A stretch of DNA of 28,327 nucleotides from Candidatus Hydrogenedentota bacterium (GTDB taxonomy: Bacteria > Hydrogenedentota > Hydrogenedentia > Hydrogenedentales > SLHB01). Below are positions 1 through 9,382 of this stretch, one piece after another; the first letter of the stretch is position 1; each line of letters begins with the position of its first letter. The DNA is taken from positions 1-28,327 of the forward strand of contig JARKSN010000087.1 of the NCBI GenBank assembly GCA_029974275.1, read 5' to 3'. Both the position numbers and the translations under genes were made by a program. The notes under the pieces were generated by a model that searched no databases, was not told the origin of the DNA, and saw only the letters and a list, made by a program, of their open reading frames with translations.

Positions 1-334
1 AGGACAGGTTCGTCAGCGCATGGAACGCGGAGACGTTGCGTTGGAAGAAGGCCTCGTGCGAATCGTGATGGCGCGCAACGCTGGGTTTCAGTTCGGAAAG
101 GTCGGCTCCCGCCGAGAAGTGCTTGCCCGCGCCCTGCACAATCAAGCCTTCCACCTGCAGACGCGGCAAGACCCGCTCGGTCAGCTCCGCAAAATCGGTG
201 AAGAAGCGCCGGTCCATCATGTTTTCCGGCGGCGCATCGAGGGTGAGATACGCGATTCCCTCGGATTCATCGACGCGAATCGAGTGGCCTCCCTCTGCGC
301 CTTTGGATCTTTGCGTTTCTGCGCTAGAGATCAC
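1..334 (-). CDS. Enoyl-CoA hydratase/isomerase (crotonase) family protein, 5' part only (runs off the window)
   Basis: Not in the ORF track; translated by hand from GTG at 334 after a GAGGAG RBS: MISSAETQ...IAYLTLDAPPENMMD...LIVQGAGKHFSAGADLSEL..., containing the crotonase FSAGADL oxyanion-hole motif. Open to position 2. Confidence 0.85.
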   Translation of the reverse strand, partial: MISSAETQRSKGAEGGHSIRVDESEGIAYLTLDAPPENMMDRRFFTDFAELTERVLPRLQVEGLIVQGAGKHFSAGADLSELKPSVARHHDSHEAFFQRNVSAFHALTNLS

Positions 335-335
335 G

Positions 336-701
336 TCACTCCTCTTGATACACCGCCAAACCATATGCGTGTTGTTTCGTGTGCGCGATGGAAATATGAA
401 GACCGAGTGCCGGCGCACCGCTTTCGTCGTGCCGGCACGGGGGGCATGATATGATAGTGGGCGCTCCGTTGGCCGTATGCGTCAGCACAAAATCGCGCTC
501 GCTCCATTTGCCCAACCCCAACCGCGCGTATAATGTACATAACGCCCGTTTCACTGCCACGAATCCCGCGACGGTCTGCACGTGCCGGTTGGCGGTCGCT
601 TCAATCTCCGCTTCCGTGAGATACTGTGCCTCGAAAAGGTCTCGCTGCGCCGCCACGTCGGCCATTGCGATTCGTTCGACCTGTGAATAGATGCGTCCCA
701 C
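336..701 (-). CDS. AcpS-like (4'-phosphopantetheinyl transferase fold) protein with degenerate motifs
   Basis: YLTEAEI ~ FTxxE; AGFVAVKRAL ~ AGRFAAKEA; NGAPTI ~ G.P; HISIAHT ~ SISH. Lacks the N-terminal GxD and the Glu of KEA. Confidence 0.65.
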   Translation of the reverse strand: MGRIYSQVERIAMADVAAQRDLFEAQYLTEAEIEATANRHVQTVAGFVAVKRALCTLYARLGLGKWSERDFVLTHTANGAPTIISCPPCRHDESGAPALGLHISIAHTKQHAYGLAVYQEE

Positions 702-719
702 GCGGTCGCGTTCCTGACG

Positions 720-1385
720 TTATCGGGTGGCGGCTTCGTCGACGTCCATGGCCTGTTCGACCACTTTGAGGAACAGCTCCGCCTCCTTGCGCAGGGCGTC
801 TTCCCGCGGCAGTTTGCGGGCGTTCCGGATGGACTCCATCACGGCCCGGACTACGCGCGGGGGACGGTTGCCCACCAGCGATTCCAGATAGCGGACCGCC
901 GCCGCGTCGGGATCATCCTCAACCACCTGGTCCACCAACCCCACGGCCAGTGCTTCATCCGCGTCGATGACATGCTCGGAAAGGACAACTTCGGCGAGTG
1001 CCCTGCGCAGTACGTTTTGTTGCGCCAAGACGGCCAAACATGCAGGCGGCAACGACAGGCCTAGTCCCGGCGAACTGAAGGCAACATCACACAAGGCAAT
1101 GCGAAAATGGCATGCCAGCGTCAAACCCGCCGAGGCATGTTGACATGCCCCGCGAATGGACGCCGCGACGGGAACGGTAGCATTGGAGACGAGGTCCCAC
1201 AGCGCTTGGTAGGTCGCCGGGGGATGGAACTCGATATCCGCCGACGGCTCAAAACGAAGCGCCACGCCCTTCAGATCGGCATGCGACAAAACGTGCCGCA
1301 ACAATGACGGCGCGCCCGACCCTCTCAGCAGGTCTGACGCCGCCAAGGTGCAAATGCCATTCGCACTGTCAAAATCGAAACGCAT
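720..1385 (-). CDS. Crotonase-fold protein with degenerate catalytic motifs
   Basis: PVAASIRGAC...LTLACHFRIA and IDADEALAVGLVDQVV match the enoyl-CoA hydratase family; FxAGAD, GGG-E and PE motifs are absent. Confidence 0.75.
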   Translation of the reverse strand: MRFDFDSANGICTLAASDLLRGSGAPSLLRHVLSHADLKGVALRFEPSADIEFHPPATYQALWDLVSNATVPVAASIRGACQHASAGLTLACHFRIALCDVAFSSPGLGLSLPPACLAVLAQQNVLRRALAEVVLSEHVIDADEALAVGLVDQVVEDDPDAAAVRYLESLVGNRPPRVVRAVMESIRNARKLPREDALRKEAELFLKVVEQAMDVDEAATR

Positions 1386-1391
1386 GCATCC

Positions 1392-2498
1392 TCACGTCAT
1401 ATTCCCAAAACGGCGCGCCGGTTGAAAGTAAGGCAGCCGAGTCTCCCGATACAAGCGATCCAACGTCTCGCGTATCCGCTCGCGCCCTTCCGCCTCGACG
1501 ACCTGCGAAAGCCTCTGTTCAGACGCCAGCAGCGCGCCGAGAGACAGGGATAACCCTCTTTCCGTAATCGCGTTACGATCCAAAGCATCATAGCAGGTGT
1601 TCACGAGCAGGTACAAGAAACGCTTCGCGAGCGCAGGAGAATCGTCGTCCGGCGGTGGTGTGATGATCTCTGTAAACAGCGCGCCACAGAGCAAGCCATT
1701 TCCCGTTTTTATGCCGCGTTTTCCCAAGGGCAGGGCACGTTCCAGGCCTTCTAGGAGCGGCGCATAGGGCCAAATTTCGTCATGAGGCATCCGGTCGAGA
1801 TACCGGACCGCCGACGCGTGGATGAGGCCAAGACCAATCGCGTCCATGAGCGAGAGCTGGCCCACCGACGATAGCGGCGAAACCGTAGCTGCGTCGATCA
1901 GCACAGGGTGTATTCCCGACAGCAACAGCCGGAAACACTCCGCGTGAACGGGCAAAAGCAGTCGGTTGACGATGAACGCAGAGTCGTTGTCTTCCTCGAT
2001 GCATTCCAGGCCATTCTCTGCCGCGAAGTCGAGAATGCGCGACCGCCGAGACGCCGGGGCATTGGACGGAACGATAATCTCGGCAAATCGGGTCAGCTCC
2101 AGCGGGTAATAGCAGTGAAAGCCGAGGCAGTCCGGGTGAATCTCCTGCGGCAGGATGGAGGAGGAGTTCGATACGAGGAGCGTGTTGTCCGATACGACGC
2201 CGCGGATCGCATGGAGAAAGGCCTGTTTCGTTGCAATGTCCTCGACGGTGCACTCGATGAGCATGTCGACCGGCTCAGCACGCATATCGGACGCCACGCG
2301 GAACCGCGTCTCCGCCGGGACGAAATCCGGGTCAACCCGCGTGGCCCGGCGCACAGCCTTGCGGAACCAATCTCCGAGCGCAACGAGTCGTTCGTGCGAT
2401 TGCGACGCCCACGTGACGCGGTGGCCTCTGCGCACGAAATAGAAACCGATGTCGCGCGCCATCTTTCCCGAACCGGCAATCAGAATATGCCTGTTCAT
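1392..2498 (-). CDS. 3-hydroxyacyl-CoA dehydrogenase family protein
   Basis: Start moved to ATG 2498 (ATGA overlap with the upstream stop). Rossmann ILIAGSGKMA, IECTVEDIATKQ, SNSSSI, GFH (catalytic His), FAEII and AFIVNRLL. Confidence 0.85.
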   Translation of the reverse strand: MNRHILIAGSGKMARDIGFYFVRRGHRVTWASQSHERLVALGDWFRKAVRRATRVDPDFVPAETRFRVASDMRAEPVDMLIECTVEDIATKQAFLHAIRGVVSDNTLLVSNSSSILPQEIHPDCLGFHCYYPLELTRFAEIIVPSNAPASRRSRILDFAAENGLECIEEDNDSAFIVNRLLLPVHAECFRLLLSGIHPVLIDAATVSPLSSVGQLSLMDAIGLGLIHASAVRYLDRMPHDEIWPYAPLLEGLERALPLGKRGIKTGNGLLCGALFTEIITPPPDDDSPALAKRFLYLLVNTCYDALDRNAITERGLSLSLGALLASEQRLSQVVEAEGRERIRETLDRLYRETRLPYFQPARRFGNMT

Positions 2499-3436
2499 AT
2501 GGCAGCCCGCTGATGCGCGTTCTTGATGTTGATGAAGCGCGGCGCGTCGGGAAGCATGCGTCCATTCTGCGTGAGCGAAATGCCGATGCCGCATTCATAG
2601 GCAGACACAACGTCCTGCGCTATCAACGTCTCCATGACCCGCTGCCAGTTCACGGGCGTGACGATGTTCCGCGCCGTGAAGGGGATCAATTCCTCGGGTT
2701 CGCGCAACGAACGCTGGTCGATGGAGGAGATAATGGGACACCGCGCCGCGCGCCAGGCAAATTGACGTAGCGTGTCTTCGAAGGGCGCGCGAACCTCCTG
2801 CAAAAAAACGGGATGGTGATAGGGCACGGTCACGTCAAGCACGGCAGCCTTGAACGCGCCCCGGGCATCGGCGTCGTCGACAAGGGCCTGAAGCTCGGAG
2901 GTTTTCCCGGAGAGAACGTGCGCGGTCGCGTTGTTCGAGTTGACCAAACAGACGGACGCGTAGTCGCCGTGGCGGAGCATGTCGTCGATTTGTTCCGCGT
3001 CGAAACCGATGACCACGGCCATGCCGCAGGCTTTGTCCACGCATGCAGCTTCCGCGAGGGTGTAGGCCTCCCGAATAATCGCGAGTCCATCGTGAAACGA
3101 TACGGCATCTGCCGCCGCAAAAGCAGAGTAAATGCCGAGACTATACCCGGCCATGAAGTAGGGCCATCCCTTGCTCGACACGAAGACCGCCGCCACGCCG
3201 CACCCGTAGCTGTAGGTCAGCGCCTGCGATTGAAGTTCGGTCAAAGAAGGGTGCGTTTCGTCGGAGATTGCGGCGATCAGGTCGGTCCCGGCAAACGCGG
3301 AACCTTCTTCGAGAAACGGGCGCATCACGCCTTCGTGGCGTTGGAAGAAGTCGCGTTCGCGGCCACACATCTTGACCGCCGCGCCGGGAAAGAGGAATGC
3401 CGATTGCACGTCACCGCCCCTCGCCGACATACTCAA
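2495..3436 (-). CDS. FabD-like ACP S-acyltransferase, atypical
   Basis: AFLFPG, nucleophile motif GYSLG (GxSxG), VPYHHP (catalytic His), PVNWQRVM and YECGIG match the malonyl-CoA:ACP transacylase fold. Confidence 0.85.
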   Translation of the reverse strand: MSMSARGGDVQSAFLFPGAAVKMCGRERDFFQRHEGVMRPFLEEGSAFAGTDLIAAISDETHPSLTELQSQALTYSYGCGVAAVFVSSKGWPYFMAGYSLGIYSAFAAADAVSFHDGLAIIREAYTLAEAACVDKACGMAVVIGFDAEQIDDMLRHGDYASVCLVNSNNATAHVLSGKTSELQALVDDADARGAFKAAVLDVTVPYHHPVFLQEVRAPFEDTLRQFAWRAARCPIISSIDQRSLREPEELIPFTARNIVTPVNWQRVMETLIAQDVVSAYECGIGISLTQNGRMLPDAPRFINIKNAHQRAAI

Positions 3437-4535
3437 TGGAATACCCGGCCTGCATGAACTTGCTGACTTCGGTGACGAAACTCAAAATGCGATCGCCCGA
3501 TTGGAACGCCTCCTCGCGCAGGATTTTGTCGAGGCACACAAAGGCCATCGGCGGGCCGCAATAGCCCAACTGATCGAGGCGCGTGTATAGGGCGTGACGG
3601 GGAATGCCCAACGCTTCACACTCCTCCATGATCGCCTCGACGATGTGCTTGGTGGGCATGTTGAGTTGGAAGTAGCGCACGCGATCGAGCGGGAGATGCG
3701 CCTGTTCGAGCATGCGCGCAAGACCGCTCGTGAACACGGACCGGTCGCCGTCCTGAAAGACATCTGTGGCCAACGCGTTTCGGAAGAGTTGGCGAAGGTG
3801 GTGCGATGCCGTGTCGTATTCGTCGCGCGGGTTCATCCAGTATGCGGGACGTTTGTTGAACATCAGCGACGGGCGTTTGCCGCCAACAGATTCAACGTGC
3901 GTCGCCTCGACGCGAAAGCCTTTGTTGCAGGACGCGTCGCGCGTCAAAACCAACGCGCCCGCGCCGTCGCACAGAAACCACCGTAGGAAAAGCGATTCCT
4001 TGTCCACAAGGGCTTGGTTGTAGTACGCGGCCCGGAGCTCGCTGGACGAGATATTCGACGAGACCACGAGGGCAGTGTGATTATTTCCGTGCTGAAGGAG
4101 TTCGTGTGCGAGATAGAGCGCCTTGTACGCCGAGGTGCAATTGGCGTGGATGGAAAACTCCGTGCAGCGTTCGATGCCCAACCGCTCTTGAATGTGCACG
4201 GACGCCGTCGGCATCTGGTCTTGGTGCGCGGAACCGTAGCAGATGAGGTCGACGTCTTCCGGCTGCATGCCTGCCGTCGCCAAGGCGCGCTTCGCCGCCT
4301 CGACCGACATCGACACGTTGTCATGCGTGAACTCGTGCGTGACCGGATCGAGGGCGTAGTGGACATGCGCGATGTCGAGCAATTCCTTCATCAGCGGCGT
4401 GGTCGTTTTCAGCCACTTCTGAATACGCGGCGGCGCCTCGGTCAACTCGCCCAACATGGAGTCGATTTGATCAAATGGAATCGGCTCGCCCGGCAAAAAC
4501 GCGCCCGTGCCCGCAATGTACACTGGAAATGCCAT
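3411..4535 (-). CDS. KAS III (FabH)-fold ketosynthase, DarB/StlD-like
   Basis: VYIAGTGAFLPG, catalytic Cys in HANCTSAY, and FLRWFLCDGAGA resembling the DarB-type FLRWMLSDGAGA segment as I recall it. Confidence 0.8.
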   Translation of the reverse strand: MAFPVYIAGTGAFLPGEPIPFDQIDSMLGELTEAPPRIQKWLKTTTPLMKELLDIAHVHYALDPVTHEFTHDNVSMSVEAAKRALATAGMQPEDVDLICYGSAHQDQMPTASVHIQERLGIERCTEFSIHANCTSAYKALYLAHELLQHGNNHTALVVSSNISSSELRAAYYNQALVDKESLFLRWFLCDGAGALVLTRDASCNKGFRVEATHVESVGGKRPSLMFNKRPAYWMNPRDEYDTASHHLRQLFRNALATDVFQDGDRSVFTSGLARMLEQAHLPLDRVRYFQLNMPTKHIVEAIMEECEALGIPRHALYTRLDQLGYCGPPMAFVCLDKILREEAFQSGDRILSFVTEVSKFMQAGYSIEYVGEGR

Positions 4536-4650: not shown

Positions 4651-5871
4651 CTACATTTTTGAAAAAACGCACACCCCATTATGCCCGCCGAACGCAAACG
4701 AATTCGACATCGCGTGCCGCAGCTCTTTTTGCCGTGCGACGTTGGGCACGTAATCCAAATCGAGTTCCGGATCGGGCGTGCGCAGGTTTGCCGTCGGCGG
4801 CAGAATTCCTGCTTCGATAGCTTTGCAGCACACCACTGCCTCGACGCCCGCCGCGCCCGCGAGACAATGCCCCGTCATGCTCTTCGTCGAGGACACCGCG
4901 AGCGAATAGGCGTGAGCGCCGAACACCTGGCGAATAGCCTCGGTCTCGTAGAGATCGTTGAGGTGCGTCGAGGTGCCGTGGGCGTTGATGTAATCGATCG
5001 ACTCGGGCGCCAACCCGGCGTTCTGCAACGCGCACGACATCGCCTTGGCCATGCCAACGCCCTTGGGTTCGGGCGACACAATGTTGTAGGTCTCGGAGGT
5101 CAACGCGGGCAAATGCAACTCCGCATACACGCGCGCACCGCGACGCTGTGCGGCATCGAGCGTCTCGAGCGCCAGCATGCCGCCGCCTTCGCCCATGACG
5201 AACCCGCTCCGCTCTTTGTCGAACGGACGCGATGCCGTCGCCACGTCCGCGACGGGTTCCGAGAGCGCCATCAACGAGCCGAAACCTTCGACGTCGAGAT
5301 AGTTGATCGACGAATCGCCCGCGCCCGCGATCACCACGTCGCATTGGCCCGTCGCGATCAACATCCACGCGTATGCCAAGGCATAGGCCCCGGACGAACA
5401 CGCGGTGCTCACGACCAGCGACGGTCCGCCAAACTTCTCGCCCAAGCTGACCCATGCCGCAGGCGCATTCGGCATGACCCGAAGAATGCGCTGCGGGTCG
5501 GGCGTTGGTTCGCTCCACGTGTAGCACGTGCCGGTCGAACCCATCACCACGCCCACGCGCGATCGGTCAAGCGGGGCGCCGTCGAAATGGGCGTCTTCGA
5601 TGGCCATCTGCGCGGTGACGACGTTCAGCATGGTTCCGCGTGTCATTTGACTGCGGTGGCGTTTTTTGATGCGGCTCTGGAAAAGTTCGTTCGCGCCGTC
5701 GGGTAGTTCCACTCCAAAGGGGCACGCCAGTCCTTCCGGGTCGAAACTCTTGAAGCGGGCGGTAGGCGTTTCGCCTGCCAGCAACCCGCGCCAACTCGTT
5801 TCCAGGTCGAGCCCCAGCCCCGTCATCAGGCCGAGCCCCGTCACCACGATGCGCGGATTCGCCACGATCAT
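4651..5871 (-). CDS. fabF: Beta-ketoacyl-ACP synthase II (KAS II)
   Basis: RIVVTGLG, STACSSG (Cys), SRPFD..RSGFVMGEG, NAHGTST (His), KSMTGH (His) and SNSFAFGG. ATG 5871 overlaps the thioesterase stop; GTG 5880 is an alternative start. Confidence 0.92.
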   Translation of the reverse strand: MIVANPRIVVTGLGLMTGLGLDLETSWRGLLAGETPTARFKSFDPEGLACPFGVELPDGANELFQSRIKKRHRSQMTRGTMLNVVTAQMAIEDAHFDGAPLDRSRVGVVMGSTGTCYTWSEPTPDPQRILRVMPNAPAAWVSLGEKFGGPSLVVSTACSSGAYALAYAWMLIATGQCDVVIAGAGDSSINYLDVEGFGSLMALSEPVADVATASRPFDKERSGFVMGEGGGMLALETLDAAQRRGARVYAELHLPALTSETYNIVSPEPKGVGMAKAMSCALQNAGLAPESIDYINAHGTSTHLNDLYETEAIRQVFGAHAYSLAVSSTKSMTGHCLAGAAGVEAVVCCKAIEAGILPPTANLRTPDPELDLDYVPNVARQKELRHAMSNSFAFGGHNGVCVFSKM

Positions 5872-6278
5872 GGCTTCCACCGTTCAAAGGCCTCTTGAAA
5901 GGCATCAGGCGCTTCCACGGCGCGTTGTTGTTGGCGGTCGAAGAAGACGATCTCCGTCTTCGCGCGCAATAGTGTATCGCCGTCACGTTGGATACGGCAT
6001 TGCAGCGTCAACCGGAAACCATCAAAGGCCACAGGGCGGACGTGGACTTGCAGTGCGTCCATAAACCGCGCGGGTTTGCGAAAATGAAGCCGCATATCAT
6101 AGAGCACCGGCACGGCATCGCTGCCGTTGATGTCGAATCCTAGACGGGTAATGAATCGTACCCGCGCGCGTTCGAGATACGCCACGAGTTTCGTGTGGTG
6201 AACGATGCCGTAGGAATCGACGTCCTCGAACTCCGCTGTGATGTTCAGCGTAAATCCTGCGTTTGCTGCGTCGTTCAT
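5868..6278 (-). CDS. Acyl-CoA/ACP thioesterase, 4HBT/YbgC hot-dog family
   Basis: FEDVDSYGIVHH...YLERAR and FRKPARFMD. Start moved to ATG 6278 (ATGA overlap). Confidence 0.88.
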   Translation of the reverse strand: MNDAANAGFTLNITAEFEDVDSYGIVHHTKLVAYLERARVRFITRLGFDINGSDAVPVLYDMRLHFRKPARFMDALQVHVRPVAFDGFRLTLQCRIQRDGDTLLRAKTEIVFFDRQQQRAVEAPDAFQEAFERWKP

Positions 6279-6688
6279 GCGTTCGCGCTCCCAGTGAACA
6301 CGTGCACCTCCGCGACGCACTCGCGCCATGGCGTCCAGCGCAGCCGCACCGCAGTGTCCGCGATAGTGTATTGCGCGCGAAGCGTGGCGGAGAGGTGCAG
6401 GCGGGGAGCGTCGTCTTCCCACTCCGCGAGCAGTTCGCATTCGGTGAAGGTATACGGCGCAGACAGCGCTTTATACAACGCCTCTTTACAACAGAATGCC
6501 GCGCAGAAACCAGCGGCGGGCCAAGGCAGGGAGCGGTCATGAGCGATTTCGCGATCGGAATACACAAACGGCCAAGGACGCGCGCCGTCGGCGAATTTCT
6601 GGAAGCGATCGAGTTGTTCCGCGTCGATTCCGCATCCGGCGAGCCGCAACGGCGCCTCAGATGTCCACGTTGAGAATGCCGTTGCCAT
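6275..6688 (-). CDS. AcpS-type holo-ACP synthase (4'-phosphopantetheinyl transferase)
   Basis: GCGIDAE, VYSDREI and AAFCCKEALYKAL; directly downstream of the ACP gene. The true start may be TTG 6649. Confidence 0.8.
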   Translation of the reverse strand: MATAFSTWTSEAPLRLAGCGIDAEQLDRFQKFADGARPWPFVYSDREIAHDRSLPWPAAGFCAAFCCKEALYKALSAPYTFTECELLAEWEDDAPRLHLSATLRAQYTIADTAVRLRWTPWRECVAEVHVFTGSANA

Positions 6689-6965
6689 GTTTCACAATAG
6701 CGTTCGTCAGGACGATGATGTCCCCGATCGTGTTGGCGGGTTTCTTCATGAGGCGCCTGCCCAGCGCCTTCAACTCGATGGTGAGGCCGAAGGTCTTGCA
6801 CACGCTCTCCAACAACGCCAACAACATCAACGAGTCTCCCTCGAGTTCCTCGATGATGTTGGTTTGGTCCGTGATGCTGTCCCTGTCCACCTCGCACTCA
6901 TCGGCAAAGAAGTCATAGACCAAGTCCCGGACCTGACGTTCGGTGTCACTCTCGACGGGCGCCAT
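6657..6965 (-). CDS. Acyl carrier protein
   Basis: Acidic 102-aa protein with EELEGDSLMLLALLE (phosphopantetheine Ser in DSL) and TIGDII; purine-rich RBS (GAGGAGAAGGGG) upstream. Confidence 0.88.
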   Translation of the reverse strand: MAPVESDTERQVRDLVYDFFADECEVDRDSITDQTNIIEELEGDSLMLLALLESVCKTFGLTIELKALGRRLMKKPANTIGDIIVLTNAIVKHGNGILNVDI

Positions 6966-7015
6966 CCCCTTCTCCTCTTAGACAATGCCTGAGCGCATAA
7001 TCGCGCGCGAAACGG

Positions 7016-7045
7016 AGTCTACCACATACGTCCCCGTGGCGTCCA
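7016..7045 (-). promoter_or_regulatory. Putative sigma70 promoter of the ACP/lipid cluster
   Basis: TGGACG-N18-TAGACT with an extended -10 TG, about 50 nt upstream of the ACP start. Confidence 0.4.
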
Positions 7046-7066
7046 TGATTGGGCGCACTCCAAAAA

Positions 7067-9382
7067 TCATTGCAACACGACGCGCCCGGTCTGTGGCATA
7101 GACGTGGACGGTGCATCGCCCAACTGTTCGCGGCGTTTTGCGAGGTCGTCGGCGGTTGCGCCGCGTCGTTCGGCTTCCGCAAGGCAACTGCGCGCGACAT
7201 CGAGTCGCTTTGCCGTCAATGCCAAGTCGCATTGTTTCAACCACGGAACGGGATCGTCGGGGCGCTCATCGGCAGCCTGTCGATAGAGATCCGCCGCCAA
7301 TTGCGGTTGGTGGAACTCGACCGCCGCATCGCCCAACACGACGAGGGGGTGTGCTACGCCGGCCGCCACGGCTCCCGGACTCTCCAGATACGCCTGCGCC
7401 TCCTGCCACATGCCTTCCGCCGCGCATTGGCGCGCGAGAAGCGTCCACGATTCAGGCGCAGCGGCGGCAGGCGCGTCGATCGACTGTTTCTGGAAACTTT
7501 CCGCCTGCCTCATCCGCGCACGAACATAGCCCAGCAGCGCCCACGCCGCTCGATTCGCCGGGTCCAATTCCATGAAATCCTGCAGCGTGAAGGCGGCCTG
7601 CATGTAGCGTCCCCGCATGGCGAGAATCTGTGCGAGAAGAAACGCTCCCTCGGGCGTCGGCGCCTTGTGTTGAAATTCGGCGAAACGTTTCTCGAGCAAC
7701 GCCACTTGTTCCGCGCGTTTGGAAAGCTGCTGCAACAGCGGCGCGTAGGGCGAGTCCTTCGCATCGCCGATGGCCTGTTTCAACAACGGCAGCGCGGCAT
7801 CGTAGTCGCCTATTTCGACAAGCGCGATCGCATACATCCCGGACGCCTCGCGCGAAATCGGGCCCAAGGACGTCGCGTATCGGTAGTAATCCATGGCGCG
7901 ATGGATATCATCGCGATGGCCCTGGGCGCGACTGCGAACCTGGTGGAGCCGCGCCAATTCGAGGGCGGCGTCTTGGTTGGACTCGTCCGATCTCAACGCG
8001 TCTTCCTGATGCGCCATGGCTTCCTCGGACTGGCCCAGCAACCGTTGCGCAGTCCCCAACGCAGAAAGCGTCCGCGACGTGCGTGCGCCGCCCTTGACCG
8101 CATCGAGCAAATGCGACTCGGCGTCGCGCAGCGTCGAAAGACGGGCGTCTTTTGCGAAATCGATATTTGGCTGATTCGCCAGTTGTTCCGCCGCCGGGCG
8201 CGCCTCTGCCAATAGCATCAACCCGATCTGCTCGTGCGCGACGGCATAATCCGGGCGCTTGTCCAGCGTATCGCTCCACAACGCCATCGGGTCTTGCCAC
8301 AGCTGATTGCGCTGAAACGTCGCCACACCCGCCGCGCCCAACAACGCCACGGCCGCAAGTCCCGCCGCCACCCGCACCGCCGCAATCTTCGGCAACGCCT
8401 GCACCGCCCACGGCAACACAAGCGCTGCGCCTGCAGACGGAAAATACGCCCCATTTTGCCGCGCGCCTTCGTCCGACAATGCCAATGCCGTTCCCGGAAA
8501 ATCTCTCACAATCGCCAGCGCATTGGATGGCGCATCCCAGTAGGAACGGAAAATATCCGCGGTAAATGCGTGCCCGGACGCCCGCCATGCCACGACGCCC
8601 GCGATCAACACGCCCCAATAGGCGACAAGTGGACGCACGCGCGACCCCAGGCCGTTCCTGCCCCAAACGACCCAGTCTACAACCGCCGCCAGAAGGGGAA
8701 ACGCCCAGGCCGCTTTCGTGCAGGCGCATGCCAAAAGAAAGCTCAACAACGATAGAACGAATCCGAGCGGCCGCAACGCCGCATTTCCGTTGTTCACGGA
8801 ATGCACATAGAGAAGAAGACTGAGCAAGACAAAAAACGTGGCCAAAACGGTCCCTCGCGGCAGAATCGCGTTGACACTCTGCGACGCAATAGGGTTGAGC
8901 ACGAACAACAGACCGGCGAGCATCGCAATGGCCTCGTGCGTCTGGCCGCGCAGCAGGCGGCGAGCAAGAAGGTAGACCAACACGCCGTTGAGAATGTGGA
9001 CAAGCGCATTGACAACGGCGAACCCTGCGGCGTTGTTGGGCGTGACGATCCAGTTCAGGCCGAAGGTCAGCGCGATCAGGCGCGACACGCCCAGCGCGGC
9101 GGCGGCGTTCCAGGCAGACGTGAAGCGGTGCGCCTCTGGGGTGTCGCGAAGAACATCGCTCACCTCTCCGATAAACAACACGCCCCACGCCGTCGAATAA
9201 ACAATCGCGCCCGCCATCGCGATCAGGAAGGCGCCTATCCACACCTGGGCTACGTCGATGCCGCGATCGCCTTTGAGGACCGGCTCAGACAGCCGTTGAT
9301 CCAGCTTTTCGTCGCCGGTGCTTTCCTCGCACGCCGGACTTTCCCTCGTTGTTTCTGGATGTGCGTTTTCGTTCACGAACAC
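7067..9382 (-). CDS. TMTC-like multi-pass membrane protein with C-terminal TPR repeats
   Basis: N-terminal TM helices with NALVHILNGVLVYLL, LFVLNPIASQSVN and TFQRNQLWQDPMALWSDTL, typical of TMTC/GT-C proteins, followed by multiple TPR-like helical repeats. Confidence 0.8.
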   Translation of the reverse strand: MFVNENAHPETTRESPACEESTGDEKLDQRLSEPVLKGDRGIDVAQVWIGAFLIAMAGAIVYSTAWGVLFIGEVSDVLRDTPEAHRFTSAWNAAAALGVSRLIALTFGLNWIVTPNNAAGFAVVNALVHILNGVLVYLLARRLLRGQTHEAIAMLAGLLFVLNPIASQSVNAILPRGTVLATFFVLLSLLLYVHSVNNGNAALRPLGFVLSLLSFLLACACTKAAWAFPLLAAVVDWVVWGRNGLGSRVRPLVAYWGVLIAGVVAWRASGHAFTADIFRSYWDAPSNALAIVRDFPGTALALSDEGARQNGAYFPSAGAALVLPWAVQALPKIAAVRVAAGLAAVALLGAAGVATFQRNQLWQDPMALWSDTLDKRPDYAVAHEQIGLMLLAEARPAAEQLANQPNIDFAKDARLSTLRDAESHLLDAVKGGARTSRTLSALGTAQRLLGQSEEAMAHQEDALRSDESNQDAALELARLHQVRSRAQGHRDDIHRAMDYYRYATSLGPISREASGMYAIALVEIGDYDAALPLLKQAIGDAKDSPYAPLLQQLSKRAEQVALLEKRFAEFQHKAPTPEGAFLLAQILAMRGRYMQAAFTLQDFMELDPANRAAWALLGYVRARMRQAESFQKQSIDAPAAAAPESWTLLARQCAAEGMWQEAQAYLESPGAVAAGVAHPLVVLGDAAVEFHQPQLAADLYRQAADERPDDPVPWLKQCDLALTAKRLDVARSCLAEAERRGATADDLAKRREQLGDAPSTSMPQTGRVVLQ

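Follow-up and report, generated by a model that had tools for sequence, protein, structure and literature searches.

A DarB/StlD-related KAS III-fold enzyme with a rearranged catalytic set, encoded in a Hydrogenedentota operon

A 28,327-nucleotide stretch of DNA from a Candidatus Hydrogenedentota bacterium (GenBank assembly GCA_029974275.1, contig JARKSN010000087.1), which is one whole contig and is called the window here, encodes an enzyme with the fold of 3-oxoacyl-acyl carrier protein (ACP) synthase III (KAS III), in which the His and Asn of the Cys-His-Asn triad are replaced by Asn and Tyr. This enzyme belongs to a family that is sister to DarB/StlD, and the rewired sister family probably still performs ring-forming chemistry of the DarB/StlD kind. 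For the window enzyme itself, DarB-type, non-decarboxylative head-to-head condensation in a rebuilt active site is, in our judgement, marginally better than an even bet. The literature searched, which mostly excludes subscription journals, contains no description of the rewired family or of the gene cassette in which it occurs.

The locus and its operon

The KAS III-like gene occupies positions 3411..4535 of the minus strand and encodes 374 amino acids (aa); motif, profile, tree and fold evidence place its product in the sister family of DarB/StlD. In translation, the Cys lies in a HANCTS motif (residues 130-135; Cys133 codon 4137-4139), the position of the FabH His reads QLNMPT (residues 290-295; Asn292 codon 3660-3662) and that of the FabH Asn reads LGYCGP (residues 323-328; Tyr325 codon 3561-3563). 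Other residues that feature in the argument are Asn132 (codon 4140-4142), the pair His245/His246 (codons 3798-3803) and Glu356 (codon 3468-3470), all read from the minus strand.

Neighbouring genes on the same strand are arranged in the order ACP, phosphopantetheinyl transferase (PPTase), thioesterase, ketosynthase (KS), KAS III-like enzyme, acyltransferase (AT), 3-hydroxyacyl-CoA dehydrogenase, crotonase (ECH), a small protein of 121 aa and a second crotonase (ECHb). The ACP gene (6657..6965) encodes a PP-binding domain with a DSL motif, and next to it lies the gene for the AcpS-type PPTase (6275..6688). The 4HBT-fold thioesterase (5868..6278) likely starts at Met55, where an ATGA overlap is formed with the PPTase stop, and the FabF-type KS (4651..5871), which has the Cys-His-His triad motifs ACSSG, HGTST and GHC, likely starts at the ATG at 5869-5871, overlapping the thioesterase stop in the same manner. 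The start of the FabD-like AT (2495..3436; serine motif GYSLG) overlaps or abuts the stop of the KAS III-like gene, and the dehydrogenase (1392..2498) likely starts at Met33 in a further ATGA overlap with the AT stop. Downstream of it lie ECH (720..1385), the 121-aa protein (336..701), which resembles AcpS by eye and has no Pfam hit, and the N-terminal part of ECHb (2..418), which is interrupted by the contig end. ECH has lost both catalytic glutamates in this genome and may be an inactive or repurposed copy. Top matches of the dehydrogenase and crotonase are 3-hydroxybutyryl-CoA dehydrogenase and short-chain hydratases. With ATGA overlaps at three junctions (6275-6278, PPTase/thioesterase; 5868-5871, thioesterase/KS; 2495-2498, AT/dehydrogenase), the longest-open-reading-frame starts of the genes concerned are probably too far upstream, and the gene arrangement assigns the KAS III-like gene to a translationally coupled operon.

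The operon very probably continues onto another contig of the same genome, C125, because the end of that contig (L087:10493-12131) encodes the C-terminal portion of a crotonase, covering profile positions 97-196 against 2-84 for the window fragment, directly followed by a B12-binding radical SAM gene. The latter is 54% identical to the gene that ends the cassette in a related locus, L026. At the other end, a gene for a 771-aa protein with a membrane-like N-terminus and TPR repeats (7067-9382, minus strand) lies directly upstream of the ACP gene. A tblastn search found no counterpart of it in 80 related loci, and it is probably outside the cassette.

The cassette looks laterally acquired by a contig that otherwise fits its lineage, because the enzyme family occurs in only 1/133 genomes (64 genera) of the host class at E <= 1e-60, namely in this genome, yet for the flagellar P-ring gene flgI of this contig, 18/20 relatives have a counterpart of 57-70% identity. 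Mis-binning of two contigs is a residual possibility, with estimated contamination at 3.58%.

Sequence identity and predicted fold

Pfam gives weak matches for both KAS III domains (30.4 and 31.8 bits). The top NCBIfam model is that of the StlD/DarB family (NF005293), which scores 133.4 bits against a cut-off of 450, and the DarB model NF053539 also remains under its cut-off (93.4 against 550 bits), as do the fabH models (TIGR00747, 79.6 against 292.1 bits; NF006829, 85.2 against 249). Among Protein Data Bank (PDB) sequences searched with phmmer, the best match is StlD (5gk0, E 1.3e-16), with which the whole protein aligns. Asn292 falls in the column of the StlD His, where the H302A mutant chain 5gk2 carries Ala, and Tyr325 in that of the Asn in the StlD motif KGNTGSAS. 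A 31-sequence profile aligned with StlD yields the same columns (E 2.4e-27), which bears out the original prediction that the Cys is kept while the FabH His and Asn are replaced. The enzyme thus has Cys133, Asn292 and Tyr325 where KAS III enzymes have Cys-His-Asn. The Glu that StlD and DarB carry in the loop after the last core strand, within PES(A/G)RF, is present as Glu356 in TEVSKF.

Predicted secondary structure follows KAS III topology: Asn292 comes after a strand (286-291) and before a helix (296-308), Tyr325 precedes a helix (330-341) and Glu356 closes a strand (349-356). The predicted three-dimensional model (pLDDT 90.3, pTM 0.92) has an StlD-type fold with extra segments relative to FabH. 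In Foldseek, StlD chains rank first (E 1.7e-31, TM 0.83-0.86), followed by AbyA1 and many FabH structures, with the acyltransferase ChlB3 at rank 39 (TM 0.69). VIA-align likewise gives StlD first, at Z 41.9 with 354/374 residues aligned and a root-mean-square deviation of 2.4, then AbyA1 (Z 36.1) and a plateau at Z 33-35 that comprises PqsD, FabH, PKS11, OleA, BioZ and type III polyketide synthases (PKSs).

On contig C61, the same genome also encodes a canonical FabH, recognisable by ACSGF, HQAN and NTTSAS. On sequence grounds, the protein at 3411..4535 is not a FabH. It is also decidedly unlikely to be a decarboxylative KAS III that initiates chain synthesis on the ACP of the cassette with Asn292 and Tyr325 as hydrogen-bond donors in place of His and Asn. 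The operon does supply an ACP for such a role, and an AT whose serine motif is FabD-like, and Asn and Tyr could in principle stabilise an enolate, as the alignment of Asn292 with a thiolase Asn described below may suggest, but the FabH score is low (TIGR00747), the genome has its own FabH, the neighbouring KS carries Cys-His-His triad motifs, and the nearest characterised relatives, DarB and StlD, do not decarboxylate. The sequence comparisons thus side with the original prediction in that the replacement at homologous positions is real and malonyl-decarboxylative priming appears unlikely. The cause that had been proposed, namely the loss of His and Asn, is in part mistaken: DarB and StlD keep this pair and are nevertheless non-decarboxylative, and therefore its loss is not what removes the enzyme from priming.

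Conservation and phylogeny of the rewired family

A word-indexed protein search returned 1291 proteins at E <= 0.001 from 4291 candidates. The 120 of these that were listed are 62-78% identical to the query, in a family that spans phyla at 60-78% identity, and every one of the 120 has Cys133, Asn132, His245, His246, Gln249, Asn292, Pro294, His297, Gly324, Tyr325, Glu356, Lys359 and Gln362; His130 is present in 119/120 and His104 in 117/120. The segments whose conservation the original prediction proposed to check, NMP and GYCG, therefore retain Asn292, Pro294, Gly324 and Tyr325 throughout this set. Because Cys133, Asn292 and Tyr325 occur in 120/120 family proteins, the Cys/Asn/Tyr pattern is, to judge from this conservation, neither a chance nor a private mutation. 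Loss of two classic catalytic residues might also be expected of a non-catalytic scaffold or a chain-length-type partner, but such a role is highly improbable given a Cys133 and many pocket residues that are invariant at these levels of identity across phyla, and a Cys that is lost in just 1/19 rows of the clade defined next.

An exhaustive search of representative proteins found 1325 at E <= 0.001, of which 207 reach E <= 1e-10 and 34 reach E <= 1e-30. For the tree, 70 representatives of 330-420 aa were taken, seven garbled ones were removed (P0131, P0153, P0190, P0191, P0241, P0251 and P0262), and five close family members plus the genome's own FabH as outgroup were added, which gave 69 rows for a quick IQ-TREE analysis (LG+G4, SH-aLRT support only). 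The window enzyme falls in a clade of 19 rows (SH-aLRT 94) with Tyr at the Asn position in 18/19 and His-His at 245/246 in 19/19; the exception, P0156, lacks Tyr and accounts for the sole Cys loss. Asn292 occurs in 13/19 rows, with Ser, Thr, Gly, Asp or Arg in the rest. Sister to this Tyr clade (support 91) is a DarB/StlD-like clade of 26 rows (support 100), in which Cys-His-Asn is found in 26/26 and His-His in 0/26. One protein outside both clades, P0255, combines loss of the Asn with His-His.

Comparison of 18 Tyr-clade rows (P0156 left out) with the 26 DarB-like rows identifies Glu126, Asn132, Lys138, Gly218, His245, His246, Gly271, Tyr325, Ser358, Lys359 and Gly364 as specific to the Tyr clade (>=17/18 versus <=2/26), and Cys133, Arg185, Asp190, Gly191, Gln249 and Glu356 as among the residues common to both; His130 and His297 are additionally invariant in an inner subclade. 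Loss of His and Asn came along with a gain of other polar residues, because Asn132, His245-His246 and Tyr325 are fixed in a clade-specific manner. With His245, His246 and Asn132 gained as invariant residues, the absence of other His/Asn from the active site is not established by the sequence data. His245 and His246 align 3-4 residues before the Met of the FabH MxGxxxF segment, which lines the pantetheine and acyl tunnel.

A separate group of KAS III homologues (P0170, P0194, P0199, P0202, P0214, P0246, P0270 and others) has xPQAN where FabH has PHQAN. These proteins lack the His but retain the Asn, in GN, and the Glu, in E(A/S)SKW, and the group looks like a different variation of the triad.

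The tree and fold comparisons also bear on whether the enzyme is a KAS III-fold acyltransferase in which Cys133 passes an acyl group from CoA to the cassette ACP, thereby priming the KS, or to a hydroxyl or amine, without formation of a C-C bond. Transacylation by KAS III requires the Cys, which is retained here while His and Asn are gone, and the operon has KS, AT and ACP without another obvious primer enzyme. KAS III-like acyltransferases such as CerJ, ChlB3 and ChlB6 do exist, and the statement of the original prediction on CerJ and ChlB6 agrees with PMC9573744. However, the known examples use a Cys-His-Asp triad, and CerJ H295N is inactive (PMC9573744); no such triad is evident in the window enzyme, which is sister to DarB/StlD instead of CerJ/ChlB3 and fits StlD far ahead of ChlB3. 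Moreover, about 20 polar residues are invariant in 120/120 proteins, which exceeds the apparent need of simple acyl transfer. An acyltransferase is, on balance, unlikely.

The cassette in related genomes

Relatives of the locus were drawn from a genome collection as the best 80 of 314 confirmed loci. By their record titles, these are metagenome-assembled genomes (MAGs) of Myxococcota, Fibrobacterota, Spirochaetota, Thermodesulfobacteriota, Calditrichaceae and Kiritimatiellia/Victivallales, with further loci from Rokubacteria, Brocadiia/Kuenenia, Bacillota, Aminicenantes and others. Cassette genes were counted by tblastn (E <= 1e-8) in those 45 loci that extend 5.5 kb or more in both directions. 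KS is present in 44 of these, ECH and ECHb in 42 each, AT in 41, ACP in 40 and the dehydrogenase in 38. B12 radical SAM genes, one or more per locus, occur in 34, PPTase in 17, thioesterase and the small protein in 12 each, and a CrtI-like oxidase in 7. Both crotonases are of the hydratase type and not of the ECH2 decarboxylase type, with short-chain enoyl-CoA hydratases as best PDB relatives. The catalytic Glu pair is kept in 51/57 ECH matches and in 65/65 ECHb matches that cover the sites (67 in all); besides the window, five ECH matches lack it, including that of the Kuenenia locus L060.

Association with DarA

A true DarB was found in a metagenome locus, L113, where it scores 553.7 bits on NF005293 and is followed by DarG and DarH. 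The gene directly upstream of it matches no Pfam or NCBIfam model. It is found again in front of DarB in 17/39 DarB loci with at least 1 kb of upstream sequence, and has three relatives that NCBI names 'dialkylre(c/s)orcinol condensing enzyme', a name that we take to be the one used for DarA. A DarA profile (A2) was built from 12 aligned proteins, with the L113 sequence as lead.

When these twelve DarA proteins were compared with the 80 related loci, 33 hits were obtained in all, and strong ones in two loci, L052 and L058. In L052, a Brocadiia MAG, a DarA homologue (6047-6958) lies directly upstream of a rewired enzyme (6977-8113); in L058 the corresponding genes are at 803-1771 and 1791-2918. 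Further hits are a fragment at the start of L076 and a 21-residue match in L073. The L052 homologue matches A2 with an hhalign probability of 100 (E 2.9e-48, 277 columns), and the adjoining enzyme is 50% identical to the window protein (186/369), with the motifs IHANC, HHV, QLNMPTKH, GYPGPP and LEVSK. In L052 and L058 alike the enzyme has the Cys, Asn132, His-His, Asn292, Tyr and Glu, and both loci have the order crotonase, DarA homologue, rewired enzyme, 3-hydroxyacyl-CoA dehydrogenase. To judge from these sequences, a DarA homologue directly beside the rewired enzyme in two relatives is a new finding, and its occurrence with a crotonase and a dehydrogenase is the strongest argument for DarB-type chemistry in the rewired enzyme. 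KS, AT, ACP and radical SAM genes are absent from the available flanks of L052 and L058, which argues against both acyl transfer and decarboxylative chain initiation as the function of the family.

The four-gene set adjoins an ABC/FtsX-type transporter in L052 (5178-9290) and cytochrome bd oxidase genes in L058 (82-4095). The rewired enzyme of the Desulfobacteraceae locus L076 (1-14317) is flanked by two sulfotransferases and accompanied by the DarA-like fragment, a methyltransferase, two short-chain dehydrogenases/reductases, a PapA-like condensation-domain protein, KS, crotonases and a type III PKS, and the cluster may make a sulfated resorcinolic lipid.

The distribution of DarA and radical SAM genes was also compared at the genome level. 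The L052 and L058 genomes have no match to the cassette radical SAM at E <= 1e-20, and the L076 genome has only paralogues with 27-30% identity; the control, the L026 genome, gives 1029 bits. Conversely, A2 finds no DarA in the genomes of L005, L037 and L054 or in the present genome, with the L052 genome as control at 231 bits, while the radical-SAM-bearing genome of L026 has a partial DarA-like frame on another contig (93.7 bits, profile positions 2-208). An either/or pattern of DarA and radical SAM is suggestive but not clean, in a sample of very few genomes, which may be incomplete.

Proposed function and significance

DarB joins a 3-oxoacyl and a 2-enoyl thioester to form a carboxy-cyclohexanedione, which is aromatised by DarA (PMC13748660, PMC6836626). 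On the evidence of sequence homology, the placement and conservation of residues, the gene neighbourhood and the DarA genes beside the enzyme in relatives, we infer the substrates, product and residue roles of a comparable reaction for the window enzyme. Cys133 would load the 3-oxoacyl chain, and the second substrate would be a 2-enoyl thioester; joining without loss of CO2 would proceed by Michael addition and then Claisen ring closure, as in DarB, to yield a carboxy-cyclohexanedione-type lipid head. The dehydrogenase could interconvert 3-hydroxyacyl and 3-oxoacyl thioesters and the crotonases 3-hydroxyacyl and 2-enoyl thioesters, thereby supplying both substrates, while in the full cassette KS, AT and ACP would build the chains. 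Enolate holding, presumably the task of the His/Asn pair in DarB, would pass to Asn292 and Tyr325, probably assisted by His245-His246 and Asn132, and Glu356, which is common to DarB/StlD, would be the likely base.

The original prediction had offered two functions, acyl transfer or non-decarboxylative head-to-head condensation. The second gains from the tree position, the best fold match to StlD and the adjacency to DarA in 2/80 loci, and the first is not supported, with no evidence of a Cys-His-Asp triad in this protein. Several observations count against head-to-head condensation. The StlD/DarB family scores are far under their cut-offs, only one of the three residues by which the DarB/StlD triad is defined remains, and the alignment of residues 217-266, which hold His245/His246, is the least certain part. 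As had been predicted for the window, no DarA was found there or in the genome with the 12-row profile A2 (the single hit has E 0.016 over 38 profile positions), nor does this genome have a DarB above cut-off. DarA is adjacent in just 2/80 related loci, and with none here the product may therefore differ from a resorcinol. In addition, the first crotonase of this genome lacks both catalytic glutamates, and the AT, ACP and KS of the operon would also suit ordinary decarboxylative chain-building.

A comparison with thiolases raises a further possibility. A profile of 19 thiolases from this genome and relatives (left after removal of a 136-aa fragment from an initial 20) was aligned with the family alignment by hhalign in local mode, with a probability of 83.8 (E 7.8e-6, 293 columns). 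Asn292 pairs with the Asn of the thiolase NEAF motif at moderate confidence and IHANC pairs with VNKVC, while the GHP and CxG regions of thiolases align with a confidence close to zero, and in that part Glu356 falls one column away from the base Cys. To our knowledge, there is no precedent for Tyr at the second oxyanion position. In the thiolase superfamily, the two oxyanion residues are either two His or Asn and His, with Cys378 as the thiolase base (PMC3406046), so that Asn at the first oxyanion position has a non-decarboxylative precedent. The window enzyme could accordingly be a thiolase- or OleA-like enzyme for linear, non-decarboxylative Claisen condensation, within a module of the reverse beta-oxidation type that delivers a 2-enoyl starter to the KS and radical SAM enzyme. 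This would agree with the Cys-Asn pattern, with the proximity of Glu356 to the base column in a low-confidence part of the alignment, with the requirement of OleA for a Glu base (PMC8180931) and with partners that are of CoA type by their top matches. It is nonetheless quite unlikely: the DarA neighbours in L052 and L058 speak for a ring product, StlD outscores OleA and any FabH by 7-8 Z units, and Glu356 is equally present in the ring-forming DarB clade.

DarB-type condensation can be extended to the cassette as a whole. The Cys/Asn/Tyr plus His-His family may represent a second, independently tuned solution to DarB-type ring formation, in which a B12 radical SAM enzyme, sometimes with a CrtI-like oxidase, replaces DarA in the cassettes of most anaerobes. 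This extension is rather doubtful. It is consistent with radical SAM genes in 34/45 flanked DarA-less loci and no match at E <= 1e-20 in the two DarA-bearing genomes; against it stand the partial DarA-like gene in 1/5 radical-SAM-bearing genomes tested and the tiny size of the sample. If true, it would mean that a way of making resorcinol- or cyclohexanedione-type lipids without oxygen is widespread among uncultured Myxococcota, Spirochaetota, Fibrobacterota, Desulfobacterota and anammox bacteria, and clusters of this kind may be those labelled 'ladderane' by genome miners.

Catalytic codes in the thiolase superfamily are usually read as Cys-His-His, Cys-His-Asn and Cys-Asn-His, to which the rewired family adds a fourth, Cys-Asn-Tyr with His-His. 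This large, uncharacterised family comprises over a thousand environmental proteins, some with a DarA neighbour, an indication that the classic His/Asn pair is dispensable for DarB-type chemistry. It also marks an orphan cassette, coupled to a B12 radical SAM enzyme and common to anaerobes of many phyla, and knowing the reaction would open the way to the cassette product, for which a membrane lipid, a signal and a pigment partner are all conceivable. Such knowledge would also be of help in correcting automatic 'FabH' and possibly 'ladderane' annotations.

Comparison with known systems

Candidate 'ladderane' clusters of anammox bacteria and Desulfotalea contain ACP, FabF, B12 radical SAM, a desaturase-like enzyme and FabZ-type enzymes (Rattray 2009, PMC2649909, PMC13459092), and the components named by Rattray 2009 are amxACP, amxFabZ, FabF homologues, a phytoene-desaturase-like enzyme and B12 radical SAM. 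The window-type cassette resembles them in its ACP, FabF-type KS, B12 radical SAM and, in some relatives, CrtI-like oxidase, and also in its occurrence in Brocadiia, Kuenenia and Desulfocapsaceae. It differs in that the published clusters have FabZ/FabG-type enzymes and, in the accessible text of these sources, no KAS III-like enzyme, crotonases or 3-hydroxyacyl-CoA dehydrogenase is described; 'Enoyl-CoA' and 'hydroxyacyl-CoA' have 0 occurrences in the text of PMC2649909. Moreover, many non-anammox phyla carry the window-type cassette. Equating it with the published anammox clusters is thus unsupported, since the gene content differs as far as those texts describe it (PMC2649909, PMC13459092). 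Expressed antiSMASH 'ladderane' clusters have been reported from Desulfobacterota, Fibrobacterota, Myxococcota, Verrucomicrobiota and Planctomycetota (PMC9902471); their function is not known, and they are a lead only for the identity of the cassette.

Beta-branching by a cassette of the HMG-CoA synthase type was considered and rejected. The hydratase Glu pairs are kept in relatives, and neither a full-length match to HMG-CoA synthase nor its triad was found, since only residues 69-168 match, with 34 bits against 244-360.

FabH (KAS III, TIGR00747) has the same thiolase fold and Cys position as the window enzyme, to which it is about 20% identical, and differs in having a His-Asn pair at positions where the window enzyme has none and in lacking its 50-60 extra residues. 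CerJ, ChlB3, ChlB6 and DpsC are similar in combining a KAS III fold with a non-canonical catalytic set, but their triads are Cys-His-Asp, or Ser-based in DpsC, as described in PMC9573744, and they are further from the window enzyme in fold rank and sequence. OleA (Cys143, His285, Asn315, Glu117) has in common with it a carboxylate available as base and the proposed non-decarboxylative chemistry. Biosynthetic thiolase (Cys89/Asn316/His348/Cys378) also has Asn at the first oxyanion position; the window enzyme differs by Tyr for His and by Glu near the Cys base, and the likeness is at the level of profiles.

The closest known systems are StlD and DarB of the dialkylresorcinol, cyclohexanedione and Photorhabdus stilbene pathways (NF005293, NF053539, 5gk0), with which the window enzyme has full-length homology. 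They share with it the motifs HYALDP and FLRWxLxDGAGA as well as the catalytic Cys and, in the xE(S/V)xxF loop, a Glu. In the window family, the His has become Asn292 and the Asn Tyr325, and Asn132 and His245-His246 are new invariant residues. The adjacent DarA/StlC aromatase of DarAB and StlCD has no equivalent at the window locus; the usual partners of the family are instead two crotonases, a 3-hydroxyacyl-CoA dehydrogenase, KS/AT/ACP and B12 radical SAM.

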